Below are positions 2,670 to 8,937 of a DNA stretch of 13,521 bases, piece by piece. A program made the position numbers and the translations under genes. The notes below the pieces were generated by a model, which saw nothing but the letters and a program-made list of their open reading frames with translations, had not been told where the DNA came from and ran no database searches. This stretch comes from Cyanothece sp. SIO2G6 (GTDB taxonomy: Bacteria > Cyanobacteriota > Cyanobacteriia > CAKZMO01), in contig JAAHGY010000096.1 of NCBI GenBank assembly GCA_010672345.1, positions 1 through 13,521 of the forward strand, in the 5' to 3' direction. Each line of letters starts with the position of its first letter. Within the stretch, counting starts at the first letter, position 1.

Positions 2670-3743
2670 ATGCAGGTTAAGCCGTTGCTGGCCGAACAAC
2701 TCCGGCTCACACTCTCGGAATATGTCACCGCGATCGCCTGGTCGCCGACGGGTAACTGCCTGGTTGCCGCCACTGGCAGGGGTGAAATCCAATATATTCA
2801 GGATTTCACCCCTGAACAACTCCAGGCTCCGACCGAACAATCCATTGATGCGATCGCATTTTCAGCCGATGGTCGTTGGCTGGCAGCAGGAGGACAAGCA
2901 GGCTGCATTACCCTATGGAAGCTGCCGTTACAACCGCTGATCGGTCCTGCCCACACCTTAGATTGTGGCTCGACCTGGATTGAGCAGATCAGTTGGCATC
3001 CCATCCACCGCTACCTGACATTTCCCCAGGGCAAAACTCTACGAATTTGGGATGCAGAACAAGCAGAAATCGGGCGGGAGATCGAACTGACAGAGCGCCC
3101 CCAGACTATGCAGTGGTCTCCAGCCGGGGATGTGTTGGCGATCGCGTTCAAAACCAACGTCCAAATCTGGCAGCCACTCCAGAGCGCTGAGCCACTTTTT
3201 CAGTGGGAACTCACCGCGACCCCTTTTACCCTCAATTGGTCTATCGATGGTAATTATCTTGCCTGTTCTATTTATGATAGAAGTGTCGGTATTTTGCACT
3301 GGTCTAAGTTGCGCCATGCCAACCTAGAGGCTCCCGATCCCCAAGATTTGCCCGTTCAGATCCGGGGGTTTCCCGGAAAAGCTCGTGCCCTTGCTTGGGC
3401 CGATATTCCCGATAGTGATACATCCCCGATGCTGGCCGTTGCAACCCGCGAAGTGGTGGCAATGTGGTTGTTCGTTCCAGAAGAGGGATGGCAAAACTGG
3501 GTCCTGGATTTGCACAGTGAACTAGTTTTAGACATCGCATTTCAACCTAAAACCGGAAGGCTCGCGTCTTTATCGGACGATGGCTGGCTCATTCTTTGGC
3601 AACTGGCGATCGAAGCGGAGCAGATCTTAGAAGAGGCCGCAGAGGGGTTTTCTTGCCTAGCATGGCATCCATCAGGACAATGGCTAGCGGCAGGTGGGCA
3701 ACAGGGAGAACTCCTGATTTGGTCACTCGCTCCAACAACATGA
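2670..3743 (+). CDS. WD40-repeat (beta-propeller) protein
   Basis: About eight repeats of the type AIAFSADGRWLAAGGQAGCITLWKL, MQWSPAGDVLAIAFKTNVQIWQ and LAWHPSGQWLAAGGQQGELLIWSL. I prefer the ATG at 2670, which is preceded by GGAGAGGA (2660..2667). The track's GTG at 2628 would overlap cysS by 29 nt. Confidence 0.85.
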   Translation: MQVKPLLAEQLRLTLSEYVTAIAWSPTGNCLVAATGRGEIQYIQDFTPEQLQAPTEQSIDAIAFSADGRWLAAGGQAGCITLWKLPLQPLIGPAHTLDCGSTWIEQISWHPIHRYLTFPQGKTLRIWDAEQAEIGREIELTERPQTMQWSPAGDVLAIAFKTNVQIWQPLQSAEPLFQWELTATPFTLNWSIDGNYLACSIYDRSVGILHWSKLRHANLEAPDPQDLPVQIRGFPGKARALAWADIPDSDTSPMLAVATREVVAMWLFVPEEGWQNWVLDLHSELVLDIAFQPKTGRLASLSDDGWLILWQLAIEAEQILEEAAEGFSCLAWHPSGQWLAAGGQQGELLIWSLAPTT

Positions 3744-3752
3744 GGTTCCGGT

Positions 3753-3782
3753 GCCATGAATATAGTTGCCATGAACATAGTT
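3753..3782. repeat. Tandem 15-bp direct repeat (gccatgaaTatagtt / gccatgaaCatagtt)
   Basis: Read directly from the sequence: copy 1 is 3753..3767 and copy 2 is 3768..3782, 14/15 identical. It starts 10 nt after the WD40 stop codon. It overlaps a possible -35 (TGAACA, 3772..3777), with TATAAA at 3794..3799 as a possible -10 for the 62-aa ORF. Confidence 0.85.
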
Positions 3783-3855
3783 AAAAATCATGATATAAAC
3801 CTGCTATTGAGTCCTTTGTAAAACGAGTCTAAACATCCAATAGGAGATTCAGAAA

Positions 3856-4044
3856 ATGACAACCATCCAGCATTATGCAACAAACTATATCGAAAATGCC
3901 AAGGTGACTTTGATTACTCCATTACAAGTAATAGAGGCAAAATCAGTGGAGTACTGCATTTCCAGCGGGTATGTCAAAGTGGTCACTCAAGATGACCGGA
4001 CGTTGATTACCCACATTAGTAATGTGGTGATTGAAGTAACCTGA
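3856..4044 (+). CDS. Small hypothetical protein (62 aa)
   Basis: ATG start preceded by a good Shine-Dalgarno AGGAG (3842..3846, 9-nt spacer). The stop is followed immediately by a 7-bp stem-loop. The sequence (MTTIQHYATNYIENAKVTLITPLQVIEAKSVEY...) looks beta-rich and belongs to no family I recognise. Confidence 0.5.
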   Translation: MTTIQHYATNYIENAKVTLITPLQVIEAKSVEYCISSGYVKVVTQDDRTLITHISNVVIEVT

Positions 4045-4247
4045 TGTGGCAAGGGCAATGTCCTTGCCTTGATGATGGTGGTGTAGCTGTCTGGTCGTTC
4101 CATGCCAGTTTCACCCCTGGAAAGTCGCGATCGCTTTTATTGGAGGGCAGAAGGGCGGAAGTGCTGAATGGGCTGCAAGCTGGGATTGCTGGCCCATTCC
4201 ATCAAGCCTTTGTGCAGGAGTTGGTGGAGCGATCGCTCCTTGAATGA
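4044..4247 (+). CDS. Doubtful 67-aa ORF, hypothetical or a remnant of native sequence
   Basis: The ATG overlaps the previous stop (TGATG), which could indicate coupling. However, the stem-loop at 4048..4068 lies inside its first codons, there is no Shine-Dalgarno, and the protein has no recognisable features. It contains two HIP1 copies (4127..4134, 4229..4236), so the DNA is native-like. Confidence 0.2.
   Translation: MWQGQCPCLDDGGVAVWSFHASFTPGKSRSLLLEGRRAEVLNGLQAGIAGPFHQAFVQELVERSLLE
4048..4068 (+). terminator. Stem-loop just after the 62-aa ORF (GGCAAGG-n7-CCTTGCC); possible terminator without a real U-tract
   Basis: Perfect 7-bp inverted repeat at 4048..4054 and 4062..4068 with a 7-nt loop. 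It starts 4 nt after the TGA stop at 4042..4044. Only TT follows, so intrinsic-terminator status is uncertain. Confidence 0.25.
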
Positions 4248-4737
4248 AGCCTGTTAGTTGAGCCGCAAACCCTGAGTGTGCGATCGCCCATCAGCAAAAC
4301 TATACCTCTCTTGAATGCCCTTGGTCATACGCCCCATCTGGAAATTTGGGGGCACGTCCTCTTTCAGATTTAAATATCCCAATTTCAAGCGAATCGCCTA
4401 CTCCAAATGACTCATAGCCCCAAGGTTCATCTCCCTTGAATGTGATATTTTTCGTGGATCTTATCTTAAGAGTTGTAAATCTATGCCCTATCTACTGAGC
4501 AAGATGTGTTACCCCAATGGCCTTGAACTGAGTGGTGCGGCAAACGTTTTCGGCAAAATGGTCAACTTTTTATCTCGTAGCATTCACTCTAGTGAATTGT
4601 TAGGTTTCCAAATGTTTGTGGGCATTAGTTTGCGTGGACGCATCTGCCCACTATACGGTTTGTACTCAAAAGCTTGTACTACTAGTCCAACTTGCAAGAT
4701 TATTTGAGTGCACTTCTGAACAAGAGGAAGTTGTCCA

Positions 4738-5904
4738 TCAGGCATCACCCTTGAATCGCGCTTCTGGCAGATCCTTAAAGGCATCACCAACACCTACCCA
4801 TATCTGGTTTGAAAATAGGGTTGGTTGCTCTCCATGCGTTGGATCGGGTATGGGTATGGGAGGGTAATTGCCCCTCACGCCCAAGAAGAATACGCGGCGT
4901 CTCTTCTGCGGTGCCCCGTAGTCAGCCGCGTTCAGGAGGTTCACATTAACTGTGTAGCCTATATCCTCTATAGAGTCCTGTATTTCCTGGTAGAGCTTGC
5001 CCCCACCAACTCCCCGTAGGTTACTTACATTTTCTAAAATGAAGAACCGTGGCTGCATTTTTTCAATGATCCTCAAGTATTCTCCAATAAGTTGTCCACG
5101 CGGATCGTTGATGTGTTTCTGGCGACCACATTGACTAAAGGCTTGACAAGGTGGCCCCCCATAAAGAATATCAGGCAGAGTATCGTGATTGCTATACTTT
5201 TGCCAGAAGCCAATTGGGTCGTCCAACTGCTGAATGTCGGATAGAACAACAGAACAACGACTTCCATACCAGCCTGATAGGGTAGAAACAGCATCTTCCC
5301 AAATATCCGAAGCCAAAAGGGTGCGGATTTTATACCCTTTGTACTCAGCTTGATCGGCCCCGATATCTAGACCACCCGCTCCAGAAAAAAGAGACATGGC
5401 AGTTAAGTCTTTGTTTGCGAGTCCCTGCTTATAAGCATATGCCAGAACTGCCTGGAAAATAGCCTTACCAAGCGGCACAGGAACAGCATTGCCAACCTGC
5501 AACTGCGTGCTTGTCAAGGTACCGTAGAATATTAAGTCGTCGGGGAAGCCCTGCAAGCGTGCAGCTTCTCGAACCGTAATGTACCTGTTCTCTGTCGGAT
5601 GGACAAACTTGTTGAAGATATAGGCCGTAACAGTTAGAGAGGGCTTCCGAGGATCTAGACGAATGATCCTCATATTCGGTCCTCCTTTACGATTAGGATC
5701 TTCCTTAAGATAGTAGCGGAACGACTCGTGCCATAGCTCCTCAGGAAGATCTTGCATCTTCTGCCCAATCTTGAGTGCGTCGATCCTTGCCTGGACTTCC
5801 GGGCCAACTTTCCTTGCTATGTGGTTCTCAGCAGCTTGGAAATGCTGTCGGCGGCTCTTTATTTGTTTTTCAGGTGAAGTTGAAGAGATTTGCAACCCAC
5901 TCAT
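4738..5904 (-). CDS. DNA (cytosine-5)-methyltransferase with circularly permuted motif order (IX, X, then I, IV, VI, VIII)
   Basis: 388 aa. Order of motifs in the translation: RYITVREAARLQGFPD (motif IX, aa 107-122) and QVGNAVPVPL (X, aa 136-145), then SLFSGAGGLDIG (I, aa 171-182). These are followed by GGPPCQAFS (IV, catalytic Cys, aa 249-257), FILENV (VI, aa 288-293) and QKRRRVFFLG (VIII, aa 333-342). The ATG at 5904 overlaps the upstream ORF by 35 nt. Confidence 0.93.
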   Translation of the reverse strand: MSGLQISSTSPEKQIKSRRQHFQAAENHIARKVGPEVQARIDALKIGQKMQDLPEELWHESFRYYLKEDPNRKGGPNMRIIRLDPRKPSLTVTAYIFNKFVHPTENRYITVREAARLQGFPDDLIFYGTLTSTQLQVGNAVPVPLGKAIFQAVLAYAYKQGLANKDLTAMSLFSGAGGLDIGADQAEYKGYKIRTLLASDIWEDAVSTLSGWYGSRCSVVLSDIQQLDDPIGFWQKYSNHDTLPDILYGGPPCQAFSQCGRQKHINDPRGQLIGEYLRIIEKMQPRFFILENVSNLRGVGGGKLYQEIQDSIEDIGYTVNVNLLNAADYGAPQKRRRVFFLGVRGNYPPIPIPDPTHGEQPTLFSNQIWVGVGDAFKDLPEARFKGDA

Positions 5905-7105
5905 CCCTCGCTATTGATTTTGTAAACGATATAATGCCATCGAATAGATTGTACAGGGGCTTGTCCGGATCTAGGTCTCGTCCAAGATGAACCCCAGTGT
6001 CCTTCTCTGAAGTCCAAATAATATCTCGCACTGCCTCCAGATATTCATCGAAATGACGCACGGCATGAATATTCGACAACAACCCAGTCTTAACGTGGAA
6101 ATGGGTAACATCGGGCTTCAATTCAGCACTAAGTTTCAGAACTTGGTAGGTTCCTTTCTTAATGTCATCTGTCCGATCCATACCGACGCTAGTCTTGCTA
6201 TCGCTCACGCTCTCATATCCAGATGCACCACGTCCACGGCTGGGCCAATTATCAGGTAATGGAAATGGCTGACCGCAGGCGTTAGTAAACCAATAGATGT
6301 TGTCACTGCGATTTTTTTCTGAGTATGCGTCTAGGGCACGAATCCAGTAGGACGAGAAGGTCTTGAAGAAGTCCTTGTTTGACGTAACGAGATTAAGCAT
6401 GGCTGCTTGGCTCCATCCATCACTGCCTGGGGTTCCGTAGACATAGGTCTTGTGTGACCAGCCATCTCCATCGGCTTGAGGAATGAAGAGACTGATGGGT
6501 GTGTGTCGTAAAGCAGTATGATCAGTTTCCGTGTGCTCCATGCCTATAATCTCACCATCTTCAGCTAGTTCCGTCAGCTCATCACTTTCAAACACGAGTG
6601 GAAGAGTAGCCAAAGGTGCAGCCTTTATTTCGGCAAACAAGACGGTTTTGGTGCCAGCCTCATAAGTTACGAGGTCTATCGGTTCTTTCCCCTTGAAAAC
6701 TTGAACATTCCGGCCATGCCGTACGAACAGGCGTTCATAGAACAAAGCAAGCCATCGACTGGATGCACGACCAATCACTCCGCTCTGAGGCTTATTGGCT
6801 TTGTGGAAAACAAAGATGTCATTCAGGATACACCGAGGGCATATATTAACGTAGGGATAGAGCATCATCGGGGGATGCGTCGGGCAATATAGCCATCCTC
6901 TATTTGCTACTAACCCATAGTATTCAGACATGATGCACATATCAAAGGCCATCGCTAGAGCGGTACCCACGCCAATGTCGGTTTCTTCAGCGTGGGTGTA
7001 GGCTGCTTCAATAAGTGTGTCGCAGAGCATTACATCATTGGGGCTAGCAACAATACTTGTCGCTGTGTCGAGTATGGCTTGTACTCGCTCATCGAACTCG
7101 TTCAA
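5870..7105 (-). CDS. Uncharacterised 411-aa protein; candidate PD-(D/E)xK restriction endonuclease partner of the m5C methyltransferase
   Basis: Long ORF co-directional with and overlapping the methyltransferase gene. It has the motif EPIDLV-x12-FAEIKAAP (P142, D144, E159, K161; nt 6623..6682) and the cluster CPTH-x11-CPRC (C74, H77, C89, C92; nt 6830..6886). The start is a TTG at 7105 with AGGTGAG 8 nt upstream. The next in-frame ATG is at codon 26 (7030). I recognise no family. Confidence 0.8.
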   Translation of the reverse strand: MNEFDERVQAILDTATSIVASPNDVMLCDTLIEAAYTHAEETDIGVGTALAMAFDMCIMSEYYGLVANRGWLYCPTHPPMMLYPYVNICPRCILNDIFVFHKANKPQSGVIGRASSRWLALFYERLFVRHGRNVQVFKGKEPIDLVTYEAGTKTVLFAEIKAAPLATLPLVFESDELTELAEDGEIIGMEHTETDHTALRHTPISLFIPQADGDGWSHKTYVYGTPGSDGWSQAAMLNLVTSNKDFFKTFSSYWIRALDAYSEKNRSDNIYWFTNACGQPFPLPDNWPSRGRGASGYESVSDSKTSVGMDRTDDIKKGTYQVLKLSAELKPDVTHFHVKTGLLSNIHAVRHFDEYLEAVRDIIWTSEKDTGVHLGRDLDPDKPLYNLFDGIISFTKSIARDEWVANLFNFT

Positions 7106-7142
7106 AACATCATCTCACCTAAAGGTTATGTCCATTACCATT

Positions 7143-7202
7143 CAGCAGATCTCAGTAACTCAACACCAGATTCACTGGATAATGCCATTATGCAGCAGAT
7201 CT
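7143..7202. promoter_or_regulatory. Two copies of CAGCAGATCT, 50 bp apart, upstream of the 411-aa ORF; possible operator/promoter elements
   Basis: Exact 10-mers at 7143..7152 and 7193..7202, each containing the palindrome AGATCT and each preceded by CCATTA. They lie 38 to 97 bp upstream of the TTG start on the minus strand. Confidence 0.3.
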
Positions 7203-7342
7203 AGCGGATAACACCCAGTTTTCAAAATTCATAAAACAACTTTAACGGTTTAACTCTGGCATCAGTTCGCAAAGGTAGACGACTGCTAAAATTGCTGAAC
7301 CCAATACGGTCAGCTTGTTCCGGTGCAAATTCTCACAGGTGC

Positions 7343-7501
7343 TTATCTAGCCAGGGTATTGTTTCTCTGTCTGGTGATAGTGCTGGAATACTGAGTTGCC
7401 AATCGAGCAATGTCAGTTGCGCTGTCGAGAGCGAGTAAATCGCCAAACATGAGGGTTGTCTTTTCGGGAGGGGCGATCGCCACAAGCCGACCTCTGACCA
7501 T
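7343..7501 (-). pseudogene. 52-codon ORF, possibly the displaced 3' tail of the upstream ABC ATPase gene
   Basis: My own translation gives MVRGRLVAIAPPEKTTLMFGDLLALDSATDIARLATQYSSTITRQRNNTLAR. It is too short for the ORF track. It contains an in-frame HIP1 read as A-I-A, typical of native cyanobacterial coding sequence. It is preceded by tgc tga aat gcg, which repeats the end of the ATPase gene at 8341..8346. Confidence 0.25.
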
Positions 7502-7542
7502 CGCATTTCAGCATCCAGACCCAAATTGTAAGAGTTAAGACT

Positions 7543-7857
7543 TCATCTGACACTAGCAATGACTTGTCCAATCTCCTCAGTTGAGGCTCCTGTCGCTAAA
7601 ATTGCTCGGATTAGCAACTCGATGGATACAGAAGCATCACCATTTTCAGCATTCGCAACACGCGGTTGACTAGACTGTATTTTTTCAGCTAAGTCCGATT
7701 GTGTCATTAGTGACTGTCTTCGCTCTTTGAGACTGCGGCTCAGTGCCAGCTTTATTTCGACAAGAATTGCCTCTTCTGGACTTAGCTCTAGAAAATCTGA
7801 AACCGTACCGACTTTCCAGCCTTTATCTTCCAGTTTTTTGCTAGTTTTTTGATCCAT
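7543..7857 (-). CDS. XRE-family helix-turn-helix antitoxin (HigA-like)
   Basis: 104 aa. The HTH core is RRQSLMTQSDLAEKIQSSQPRVANAENG. It lies 4 nt downstream of a RelE/HigB-like toxin gene in toxin-first order. Confidence 0.8.
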   Translation of the reverse strand: MDQKTSKKLEDKGWKVGTVSDFLELSPEEAILVEIKLALSRSLKERRQSLMTQSDLAEKIQSSQPRVANAENGDASVSIELLIRAILATGASTEEIGQVIASVR

Positions 7858-7861
7858 CCTG

Positions 7862-8203
7862 TTAACCTTGCTTATCTTGCTCGTACTTGCTTAATCGCTT
7901 CTTACAAATATCAATAATGCTCTGGGGTGTTGTCTGAGTCTTTTTGCTAAAGACTTGCAAAATCAAGATGGCATCGTTGTCAATGCGATATACGATTCGC
8001 CAATTTTGCTCTGCATCCCTGATTCGCAGTTCATGACAGCCTACTCCTATACTTGGCATGGGCCTTGACTGAGGCAGACCTAAACATTCACCCTGTTGCA
8101 GTCGCCTTAATAGAAACCCTGCCTCAAGTCTGGACACTTGACTAAAAGGAGGGGTTTTAACCTCACCATGAAGCCAAACTAGAGGTTTATCATTTTTACT
8201 CAT
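7862..8203 (-). CDS. RelE/ParE-superfamily toxin, HigB / phage Gp49-like
   Basis: From the internal Met: MSKNDKPLVWLHGEVKTPPFS...GVGCHELRIRDAEQNWRIVYRIDNDAILILQVFSKKTQTTP, the typical Gp49/HigB-like pattern. I use the ATG at 8203 (113 aa) rather than the track's start at 8326. The extra 41 codons cover the probable promoter and have no toxin-family similarity. Confidence 0.75.
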   Translation of the reverse strand: MSKNDKPLVWLHGEVKTPPFSQVSRLEAGFLLRRLQQGECLGLPQSRPMPSIGVGCHELRIRDAEQNWRIVYRIDNDAILILQVFSKKTQTTPQSIIDICKKRLSKYEQDKQG

Positions 8204-8206
8204 GTC

Positions 8207-8224
8207 TATATCATATCTGATATA
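8207..8224. promoter_or_regulatory. Inverted repeat TATATCA-n4-TGATATA immediately upstream of the toxin start; candidate toxin-antitoxin operator
   Basis: The 7-bp arms are at 8207..8213 and 8218..8224, read directly. The repeat overlaps a TATGAT -10-like hexamer on the minus strand. A TTGACG (plus strand 8284..8289) followed 17 nt later by TCGAAT is another promoter candidate. Confidence 0.3.
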
Positions 8225-8340
8225 TCCTGCTATGCTAGCACCATACAGTAATATCAATGGATTCGATTTTGCTCTAAGCAATTCGTCAACAGGATCAGAT
8301 TGGCACCACCCTTCCGTCCCAAGCATTCAGTCCGATCGCC

Positions 8341-8937
8341 TCAGCAGGGGATCACCTGCCCTTGACACAATTGCCCCAGCAATGATTTGTCGTGGCTGAT
8401 CACCATTAGCCCCATGTTATGGTCACGGGCAAAGTCCAGCACCACCTGCCAGATCAGGGCTTGGGTATTGGCATCTAACATAGCGGTCATTTCATCGGCA
8501 ATCAGATAACGGGTGTTGGGGTTGAGGATACGAGCGATCGCCACTCGCTGTAATTCCCCACCGCTTAATTCATGGGGATAACGGGTCATCCAGCCGGGAT
8601 GAATGCCGAGGGCTTTGAGGTAGTGGGGGCGGGGGACGTATCCTTCTCGCAAAATTTGGTCAATGCGCCAGCGGGGGTTAACCGACAATTCGGGATTTTG
8701 AAAGACGAGCTGAACCGGGCAGTAACCTTGGCTGGGGAGCAACTGGTCATCTAGCGTGATCTGTCCTTGGGTGGGAGTGAGATAGCCTGCTAGCAGTTTA
8801 CCCAGAGTGGTTTTGCCGTGGCCCGATGGAGCCATGAGGCCGATCACTTCTCCCGGTGCAATGGAGAGGGTGCGATCGCGCACTACCCAGGGCAATTTTG
8901 CCCCATAACGAAACCAGAGTCCTTCACCGTTCAGCAT
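8341..8937 (-). CDS. ABC transporter ATP-binding protein (DppF/NikE-like), unusually short at 198 aa
   Basis: Walker A is APSGHGKTT, Q-loop VFQNP, signature LSGGELQRVAIAR, Walker B YLIADEMTAMLD and H-loop ISHD. Only 16 residues follow the H-loop His. The gene overlaps the upstream ATPase gene by 14 nt. Confidence 0.9.
   Translation of the reverse strand: MLNGEGLWFRYGAKLPWVVRDRTLSIAPGEVIGLMAPSGHGKTTLGKLLAGYLTPTQGQITLDDQLLPSQGYCPVQLVFQNPELSVNPRWRIDQILREGYVPRPHYLKALGIHPGWMTRYPHELSGGELQRVAIARILNPNTRYLIADEMTAMLDANTQALIWQVVLDFARDHNMGLMVISHDKSLLGQLCQGQVIPC

Follow-up and report, generated by a model that had tools for sequence, protein, structure and literature searches.

A predicted BssHII-family restriction–modification operon with a circularly permuted cytosine-5 methyltransferase in Cyanothece sp. 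SIO2G6

Introduction

The BssHII restriction–modification (R–M) system of Geobacillus (Bacillus) stearothermophilus H3 consists of an endonuclease (R.BssHII; AAC45756.1/O30876) and a methylase (M.BssHII; AAC45757.1/O30877), the latter being the DNA (cytosine-5) methyltransferase (C5-MTase) in which a circular permutation was first described, in 1997 (Xu et al., as cited in PMC5944983). Here we describe a methylase gene with the same permuted motif order, and with its termini at the same place, located at positions 4738–5904 on the minus strand of a contig from Cyanothece sp. SIO2G6, together with the endonuclease gene that lies upstream of it. Positions are numbered along the window, by which we mean the whole 13,521-nt contig stretch that was analyzed. 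The host here is a cyanobacterial metagenome-assembled genome (MAG), as opposed to a thermophilic, cultured Bacillus, and the methylase from the window carries 8 extra N-terminal and approximately 5 extra C-terminal residues relative to M.BssHII.

A catalogue published in 2018 comprises 27 natural permuted C5-MTases (M.BssHII, M.Alw26I, M2.Eco31I, M.Esp3I, M2.BsaI and 22 further REBASE entries), including cyanobacterial BssHII-like members, and all of the permuted enzymes named there are opened within the variable region, a breakpoint termed ‘Type H’ in that source (PMC5944983). Three putative cyanobacterial enzymes in its S5 Dataset (M.Tbo1301ORF214495P, M.Afl2012ORF16135P and M.Ski73ORF33040P), none of them biochemically characterized according to that source, come from different species but belong to the same sub-family as the window methylase, share its block order and have nearly the same sequence in the recognition region and in motifs IX, X and I. 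The last of the three is, judging by its name, probably from Sphaerospermopsis kisseleviana NIES-73, the source genome of one of the loci compared below (L014). The published alignment places the window methylase with M.BssHII (PMC5944983), and not in the permuted group of Type IIS systems represented by M.Alw26I, M2.Eco31I, M.Esp3I, M2.BsaI, M.BsmBI and M.BsmAI. The Type IIS enzymes have the same topology, in that their chains begin and end inside the variable region and motifs IX and X come ahead of I to VIII, but their sequence kinship to the window methylase is far more distant and their targets are asymmetric. Several of them form the C-terminal half of proteins of ∼1000 amino acids (P0169, P0198, P0203 and others in our searches), whereas the window protein is a stand-alone enzyme with a BssHII-type partner; the long permuted representatives score E values of ∼1e-39 to 1e-44, versus 1e-129 for the BssHII-like ones.

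Canonical enzymes, among them M.HaeIII, M.HhaI and two closer homologs found here (P0162 and P0193), resemble the window methylase in possessing the ten motifs, the same catalytic residues and a common fold of the I–VIII domain. Their termini lie at motifs I and X, while the window methylase joins motifs I and X by a linker and is opened in the variable region instead. Two further arrangements differ from both. M.AquI is split within the variable region into two polypeptides; the window methylase, in contrast, is one uninterrupted open reading frame (ORF) with a confidently modeled junction between motifs X and I. In plant DRM enzymes the breakpoint falls between motifs V and VI and places VI–X ahead of I–V; in the window methylase motifs VI and VIII come after motif IV, corresponding to a different breakpoint. 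Circularly permuted variants of M.HaeIII have also been made in a directed-evolution study, as recounted in PMC5944983.

Results

Circular permutation of the methyltransferase

The ORF at 4738–5904 (minus strand) begins with an ATG codon and encodes 388 amino acids without an internal stop; its product is 100% identical to a protein annotated in GenBank as ‘DNA (cytosine-5-)-methyltransferase’ from the Cyanothece sp. SIO2G6 MAG. An earlier sequence-only reading had assigned the gene to these same coordinates, correctly although it left the strand unstated, and had quoted the motifs in the order IX, X, I, IV, VI, VIII, all of which we found where it had placed them. Each motif occurs once in the ORF: motif IX (TVREAARLQGFPD) at residues 110–122, motif X (GNAVPVPL) at 138–145, motif I (FSGAGGLDIG) at 173–182, motif IV (GPPCQAFS, with the catalytic Cys253) at 250–257, motif VI (ENV) at 291–293 and motif VIII (QKRRRVFFLG) at 333–342. 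The chain ends with ...DAFKDLPEARFKGDA (residues 374–388), and R86, T91 and V92 lie within the sequence DPRKPSLTVT of the N-terminal recognition region.

The protein matches the TIGR00675 model at 197.8 bits (against a cut-off of 100.65) and contains the residues characteristic of the family in each motif (F173–G178, P252–C253, E291–V293, Q333/R335/R337, R112–P121 and G138–P142). In an alignment of 42 family members the catalytic and S-adenosylmethionine (SAM)-binding motif residues are invariant or nearly so. By these sequence criteria the methylase is a member of the DNA (cytosine-5) methyltransferase superfamily, and it is predicted to produce 5-methylcytosine.

Within this single ORF motif X (at residue 138) lies ahead of motif I (at residue 173). 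The PF00145 profile matches strongly (222 bits, E = 1.8e-65, cut-off 22), with the match split into two stretches, and a phmmer search against the PDB aligned residues 169–369 with positions 3–186 of M.HaeIII (1dct) and residues 79–151 with positions 243–318, in swapped order. When the sequence was rearranged in silico, with residues 166–388 placed first and residues 1–165 after them, it produced one PF00145 stretch (residues 3–376 against profile positions 2–322 of 324, E = 1e-67), aligned to M.HaeIII in the normal order, and was colinear over its whole length, including the recognition region and the point where the two parts had been joined, with the canonical-order homolog P0162 (33% identity, E = 8e-59) and likewise with P0193 (32% identity). 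Judged from these alignments, the methylase is a single-polypeptide circularly permuted C5-MTase with its termini inside the variable (target-recognition) region, in agreement with the permutation that the sequence-only reading had recognized. As canonical relatives align to the rearranged chain straight across this artificial join, the natural termini are assigned to a loop in the variable region where conservation is poor; the same alignment bears out the earlier placement of R86 and T91–V92 in the N-terminal part of that region, and the two canonical-order homologs are unpermuted relatives of the kind for which a search had been proposed.

The variable region is thus divided, with ∼40 residues after motif VIII located at the C-terminus and residues 23 to ∼104 located in the N-terminal part of the chain. 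The N-terminal tail (residues 1–26; 5827–5904, all segments being on the minus strand) forms one side of the breakpoint; it is poorly conserved, with 27% identity to M.BssHII, is mostly disordered in the predicted structure, and many homologs align only from approximately residue 26 onward. The main target-recognition region (residues 27–104; 5593–5826), which includes R86 and T91-V92-T93, corresponds to the VIII-to-IX segment of canonical-order relatives and contains many invariant residues. It is followed by motifs IX (R112 E113 ... Q118 G119 F120 P121) and X (G138 N139 A140 V141 P142) within residues 105–152 (5449–5592), the part that aligns to M.HaeIII 243–318, and then by a helix and linker (residues 153–168; 5401–5448; 38% identical to M.BssHII) that run from motif X to motif I and connect what are the C- and N-termini in canonical enzymes. 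The catalytic core (residues 169–346; 4867–5400), aligning to M.HaeIII 3–186, contains motifs I (F173–G178), IV (P251 P252 C253 Q254), VI (E291 N292 V293) and VIII (Q333 R335 R337). The start of the variable region, which is now the C-terminal tail and the other side of the breakpoint (residues 347–388 plus the stop codon; 4738–4866; 36% identical to M.BssHII), aligns just past motif VIII of M.HaeIII and of the canonical relatives.

An AlphaFold2 model of the methylase, built from 42 family members, has a pLDDT of 87.6 and a pTM of 0.87, with pLDDT values below 50 for residues 1–22. At the junction between motifs X and I the model contains a helix (residues 143–159) that leads directly into a strand (residues 166–172), with mean pLDDT values of 96–98 in 10-residue blocks across residues 141–170. 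We infer that the folded methylase would be a usual two-domain methyltransferase, with only its chain connectivity unlike that of canonical enzymes.

The original GenBank deposits of the BssHII methylase and endonuclease (AAC45757.1 and AAC45756.1) were retrieved by cluster look-up. The window methylase aligns colinearly with M.BssHII (375 amino acids) at 62% identity over 381 aligned positions (E = 2e-175), and with the M.BssHII sequence from the S5 Dataset alignment of PMC5944983 at 64% identity, gapless over 355 residues. On sequence, it is an ordinary M.BssHII orthologue. The sequence-only reading had cited M.BssHII solely as a precedent and had attached special significance to the gene, for which the orthology and the cognate endonuclease described below leave little room.

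The adjacent endonuclease

The gene upstream of the methylase, at 5870–7105 on the minus strand, encodes a 411-amino acid protein annotated as a ‘hypothetical protein’ in GenBank. Searches of Pfam, NCBIfam and the PDB returned no match to it. It does match the PADLOC REase_II model PDLC03440 over its full length (E = 1.3e-122) and shows 46% full-length identity to the endonuclease of the BssHII system (AAC45756.1, 417 amino acids; E = 8e-138), and can be annotated as a Type II restriction endonuclease and R.BssHII orthologue. This reannotation is the only new item that the locus provides.

Among 30 homologs of the endonuclease, residues E141, P142, D144, E159 and K161 are invariant, as are C74 and C89, with C92 nearly so. 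The pattern E141 P142 D144 ... E159 K161 suggests a candidate PD-(D/E)XK site, and the three cysteines could form a metal-binding cluster. Every residue that is invariant in the family is kept in the 411-amino acid protein, and the endonuclease and methylase ORFs are both intact.

The two genes overlap by 35 nt (5870–5904, minus strand), such that the stop codon of the endonuclease gene (5870–5872) lies inside the 5′ end of the methylase gene, which starts at 5904. This overlap suggests that they are co-transcribed and translationally coupled. A GAGGG sequence abuts the annotated ATG of the methylase (window 5893–5904, minus strand), and a TTG at codon 4, positioned 9 nt past the GAGGG, could be the true start; the ATG and the TTG both lie within the 3′ end of the endonuclease gene.

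Distribution of the family

The sequence-only reading had described the permuted architecture as rare, a description that the following counts do not support. A protein search returned at least 120 clusters at 90% identity (a lower bound), whose members are 56–88% identical to the window methylase over >91% of the query, are 359–415 amino acids in length and are single ORFs. These clusters come from cyanobacteria, Firmicutes, Chloroflexota, Candidatus Pacebacteria and others. The full IX-X-I-IV-VI order is present in 114 of the 120 listed clusters, and in the remaining 6 the regular expressions failed to pick up one or two motifs, those that were detected following the same order.

When one genome per species was searched with a pattern-seeded scan, at least 128 of them, spread over many phyla, contained relatives; complete chromosomes and one archaeon are among these, and 80 loci were kept for neighborhood comparison. 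An R.BssHII homolog is located immediately upstream of the methylase, on the same strand, in 76 of these 80; in most of the 76 the ends of the two alignments lie within ∼50 nt of each other or overlap. In two of the other four loci the upstream sequence is not long enough for a judgement, and the remaining two (L001 and L077) have room for an endonuclease gene but none was detected in them. The latter two have the appearance of orphan systems or of systems in decay, and the top tblastn alignment to the methylase in L077 spans query residues 22–250 only. A further locus (L063), from a Methanomassiliicoccaceae archaeon, carries a complete R–M pair and points to transfer between domains.

More distant relatives were considered as representatives at 50% identity. 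The best 150 of these include at least 14 stand-alone permuted enzymes, 69 canonical enzymes, several tandem double methyltransferases, and 8 permuted modules at the C-terminus of proteins of 689–1100 amino acids (seven of them ∼1000 amino acids, of the Alw26I/Esp3I/BsmBI type). The permuted architecture is a minority among C5-MTases, yet in absolute numbers it is not rare, and it is not new either, as the 27 enzymes already catalogued in 2018 also indicate (PMC5944983). The family as a whole is widespread and appears horizontally mobile, with members in cyanobacteria, Chloroflexota, Firmicutes, Bacteroidota, Latescibacterota and one archaeon.

Assessment of the operon and its specificity

Taken together, the features described above make it highly probable that the region 4738–7105 (minus strand) is a two-gene BssHII-family Type II R–M operon with a permuted methylase. 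A complete Type II R–M system, probably with GCGCGC specificity, is the annotation that we propose for the locus. Its importance beyond annotation is small.

Several observations weigh against this assignment, or fail to lend it the support that might have been hoped for. A promoter and terminator scan of 4300–7700 gave no candidate that stands out, with counts at or below shuffle expectation. There are no GCGCGC sites in the window, where only 2.5 ± 1.8 are expected, so that the count is not informative; pooled over the 80 related loci, the ratio of observed to expected GCGCGC sites is 0.39, which ranks 10th of 64 hexamer palindromes for depletion. Since neither value is discriminating, we dropped GCGCGC avoidance as evidence of specificity. 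Identity to R.BssHII is only 46% for the endonuclease, and the methylase C-terminal tail is only 36% identical to its M.BssHII counterpart. Finally, a Foldseek search with the methylase model returned M.HhaI and M.HaeIII as its top matches (180–196 columns, rmsd 2.7–4.0 Å, E ∼4e-14), but only the I–VIII half was superposed, with a TM-score normalized to the query of 0.38–0.39 under sequential alignment. Because Foldseek aligns sequentially and the chain is permuted, the second half is not expected to follow. The I–VIII superposition itself supports a methyltransferase fold for the catalytic domain and realizes that part of the comparison with M.HhaI proposed in the sequence-only reading; for the whole chain, the in silico rearrangement described above serves in its place.

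The target of the methylase is probably GCGCGC, the same as that of BssHII. Recognition regions usually diverge fastest among enzymes of different specificity. In the present case, residues 27–104 are instead the best-conserved part of the protein, with 83% identity to M.BssHII, versus 56–60% in the catalytic core and 27–38% in the tails and the X-to-I linker, and it is on this contrast that we infer a shared target. Given the divergence of the endonuclease and of the methylase C-terminal tail, a shifted specificity has to be considered, and we regard a recognition sequence other than GCGCGC in the cyanobacterial copy as a minor possibility.

More broadly, the locus might belong to the BssHII family but recognize a sequence other than GCGCGC, or it might be in decay, the endonuclease being inactive and the methylase working without a partner. 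We consider this unlikely. The same divergence of the endonuclease and of the methylase tail speaks for it, as do the loss of the endonuclease gene elsewhere in the family (L001 and L077) and the indistinct depletion of GCGCGC, but it is difficult to reconcile with the strong conservation of the recognition segment, with two intact, full-length ORFs in which E141, P142, D144, E159 and K161 of the endonuclease are kept, and with the conserved operon layout.

The motif order might alternatively reflect two separate polypeptides, one comprising the N-terminal recognition region with motifs IX and X and the other motifs I to VIII, as in M.AquI, with their presence in a single ORF being incidental. 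A methionine (M170) located three residues ahead of motif I would allow such a start, and complementing split C5-MTases are known (PMC5944983). There is, however, no stop codon between the two parts; M170 is not conserved and is replaced by phenylalanine in M.BssHII; the X-to-I junction is modeled as a confident helix-to-strand connection; the listed relatives are all single ORFs; and M.BssHII itself is described as a single permuted enzyme (PMC5944983). A division into two polypeptides is consequently very improbable, and the earlier concern that the IX/X segment might belong to a separate ORF is answered by the one uninterrupted frame. That the order was created by an assembly artefact or a local tandem duplication of a canonical gene in the MAG, a further concern raised at that stage for which one could cite the metagenome-assembled contig of ∼14 kb and the tandem double methyltransferases found among distant relatives, is scarcely credible, as each motif occurs once in the ORF and the same order is found colinearly and at full length in M.BssHII of a cultured Bacillus, in the 120 listed clusters wherever motifs are detectable, and in 80 independently assembled loci that include complete chromosomes.

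Proposed mechanism

Under the preferred assignment of the locus as a BssHII-family R–M operon, the methylase chain would start inside the variable region, pass through most of the recognition region, then through motifs IX and X, the helix and linker, and motifs I to VIII, and end with ∼40 residues of the variable region. Following established C5-methyltransferase chemistry, SAM would be held by motifs I and X, and Cys253 of the PPCQ motif would attack C6 of a flipped-out cytosine, assisted by the ENV and QxRxR motifs. The recognition domain would be assembled mainly from residues 27–104, with the C-terminal tail packing alongside. Methylation at what would be, by similarity, a GCGCGC target would shield host DNA from the partner endonuclease, which would cut incoming DNA when it is unmethylated.

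Origin of the permutation

The origin of this type of permutation has long been discussed in the literature, including a route by duplication and truncation. The sequence-only reading favored a fusion, in swapped order, of a split pair resembling M.AquI, a proposal that the present comparisons neither support nor exclude. The canonical-order homologs P0162 and P0193 share a homologous recognition region with the permuted methylase, and in the tandem double C5-MTases (P0131–P0141, P0149 and P0159) the X-to-I junction is colinear with that of the permuted enzyme. By sequence, both groups are candidate material for tracing how the permutation arose. They fit duplication and truncation equally well, and so the choice between that route and the fusion of split halves is not decided at this locus. 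It seems to us rather doubtful that the family preserves enough intermediates (canonical with a homologous recognition region, tandem double, and stand-alone permuted) for the origin to be reconstructed; the locus opens no new question, and alone it does not make the origin of the permutation more testable.

Genomic context

The R–M pair lies in a segment of lower GC content at approximately 3750–8340 (0.43–0.49 across approximately 3600–8400, against 0.55–0.60 in the flanks) that also contains a toxin–antitoxin module and is bounded by cysS and a WD40 gene on one side and by a peptide/nickel-type ABC transporter operon on the other. This composition, together with the toxin–antitoxin module and the scattered occurrence of the family among phyla, suggests that the R–M pair was horizontally acquired.

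The toxin–antitoxin-like pair is located upstream of the R–M operon (7543–8326, minus strand) and consists of a Gp49/HigB-like toxin ORF (7862–8326, minus strand; PF05973, E = 3e-11) followed by an HTH_3 protein that is a candidate antitoxin (7543–7857, minus strand). We also considered the latter as a possible controller (C) protein of the R–M system; its match to a control-protein model is marginal (E = 0.02), and it pairs better with the Gp49/HigB-like toxin, so we do not count it as part of the R–M system. Beyond this pair, at 8341–8937 (minus strand), is a 198-amino acid NikE/OppF-like ABC ATPase ORF that reaches only position 220 of the NikE profile (265 positions), and whose 3′ end may have been truncated by the low-GC island.

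On the other side, the ∼1 kb downstream of the methylase (3744–4737) contains only short ORFs (62, 67 and 74 amino acids) without a Pfam or NCBIfam match. Vsr-type mismatch-repair genes often accompany C5-MTases; none was identified within the window, nor was any RNA family found there with Rfam. Repeats flanking the low-GC island are limited to short ones at chance level and to copies of the octamer palindrome GCGATCGC, which occurs in the arms of inverted repeats at 3599–3612, 4122–4140, 4228–4241, 4280–4299, 7461–7480 and 8528–8548. The octamer corresponds to HIP1, an element typical of cyanobacteria, and fits the cyanobacterial origin of the contig. The island's left edge, directly after the WD40 stop codon, also carries a head-to-tail repeat (3752–3781, plus strand; 93% identity) of the 15-nt unit TGCCATGAATATAGT.

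At the left edge of the window, a 267-amino acid ORF that runs off the contig stretch (1–804, plus strand; GC 0.42) is annotated in GenBank as ‘N-6 DNA methylase, partial’ and has a weak match to the TaqI_C specificity domain (E = 0.003). Its homologs are up to 450 amino acids in length and mostly unnamed, and the ORF may be part of a second R–M or Type IIG gene.

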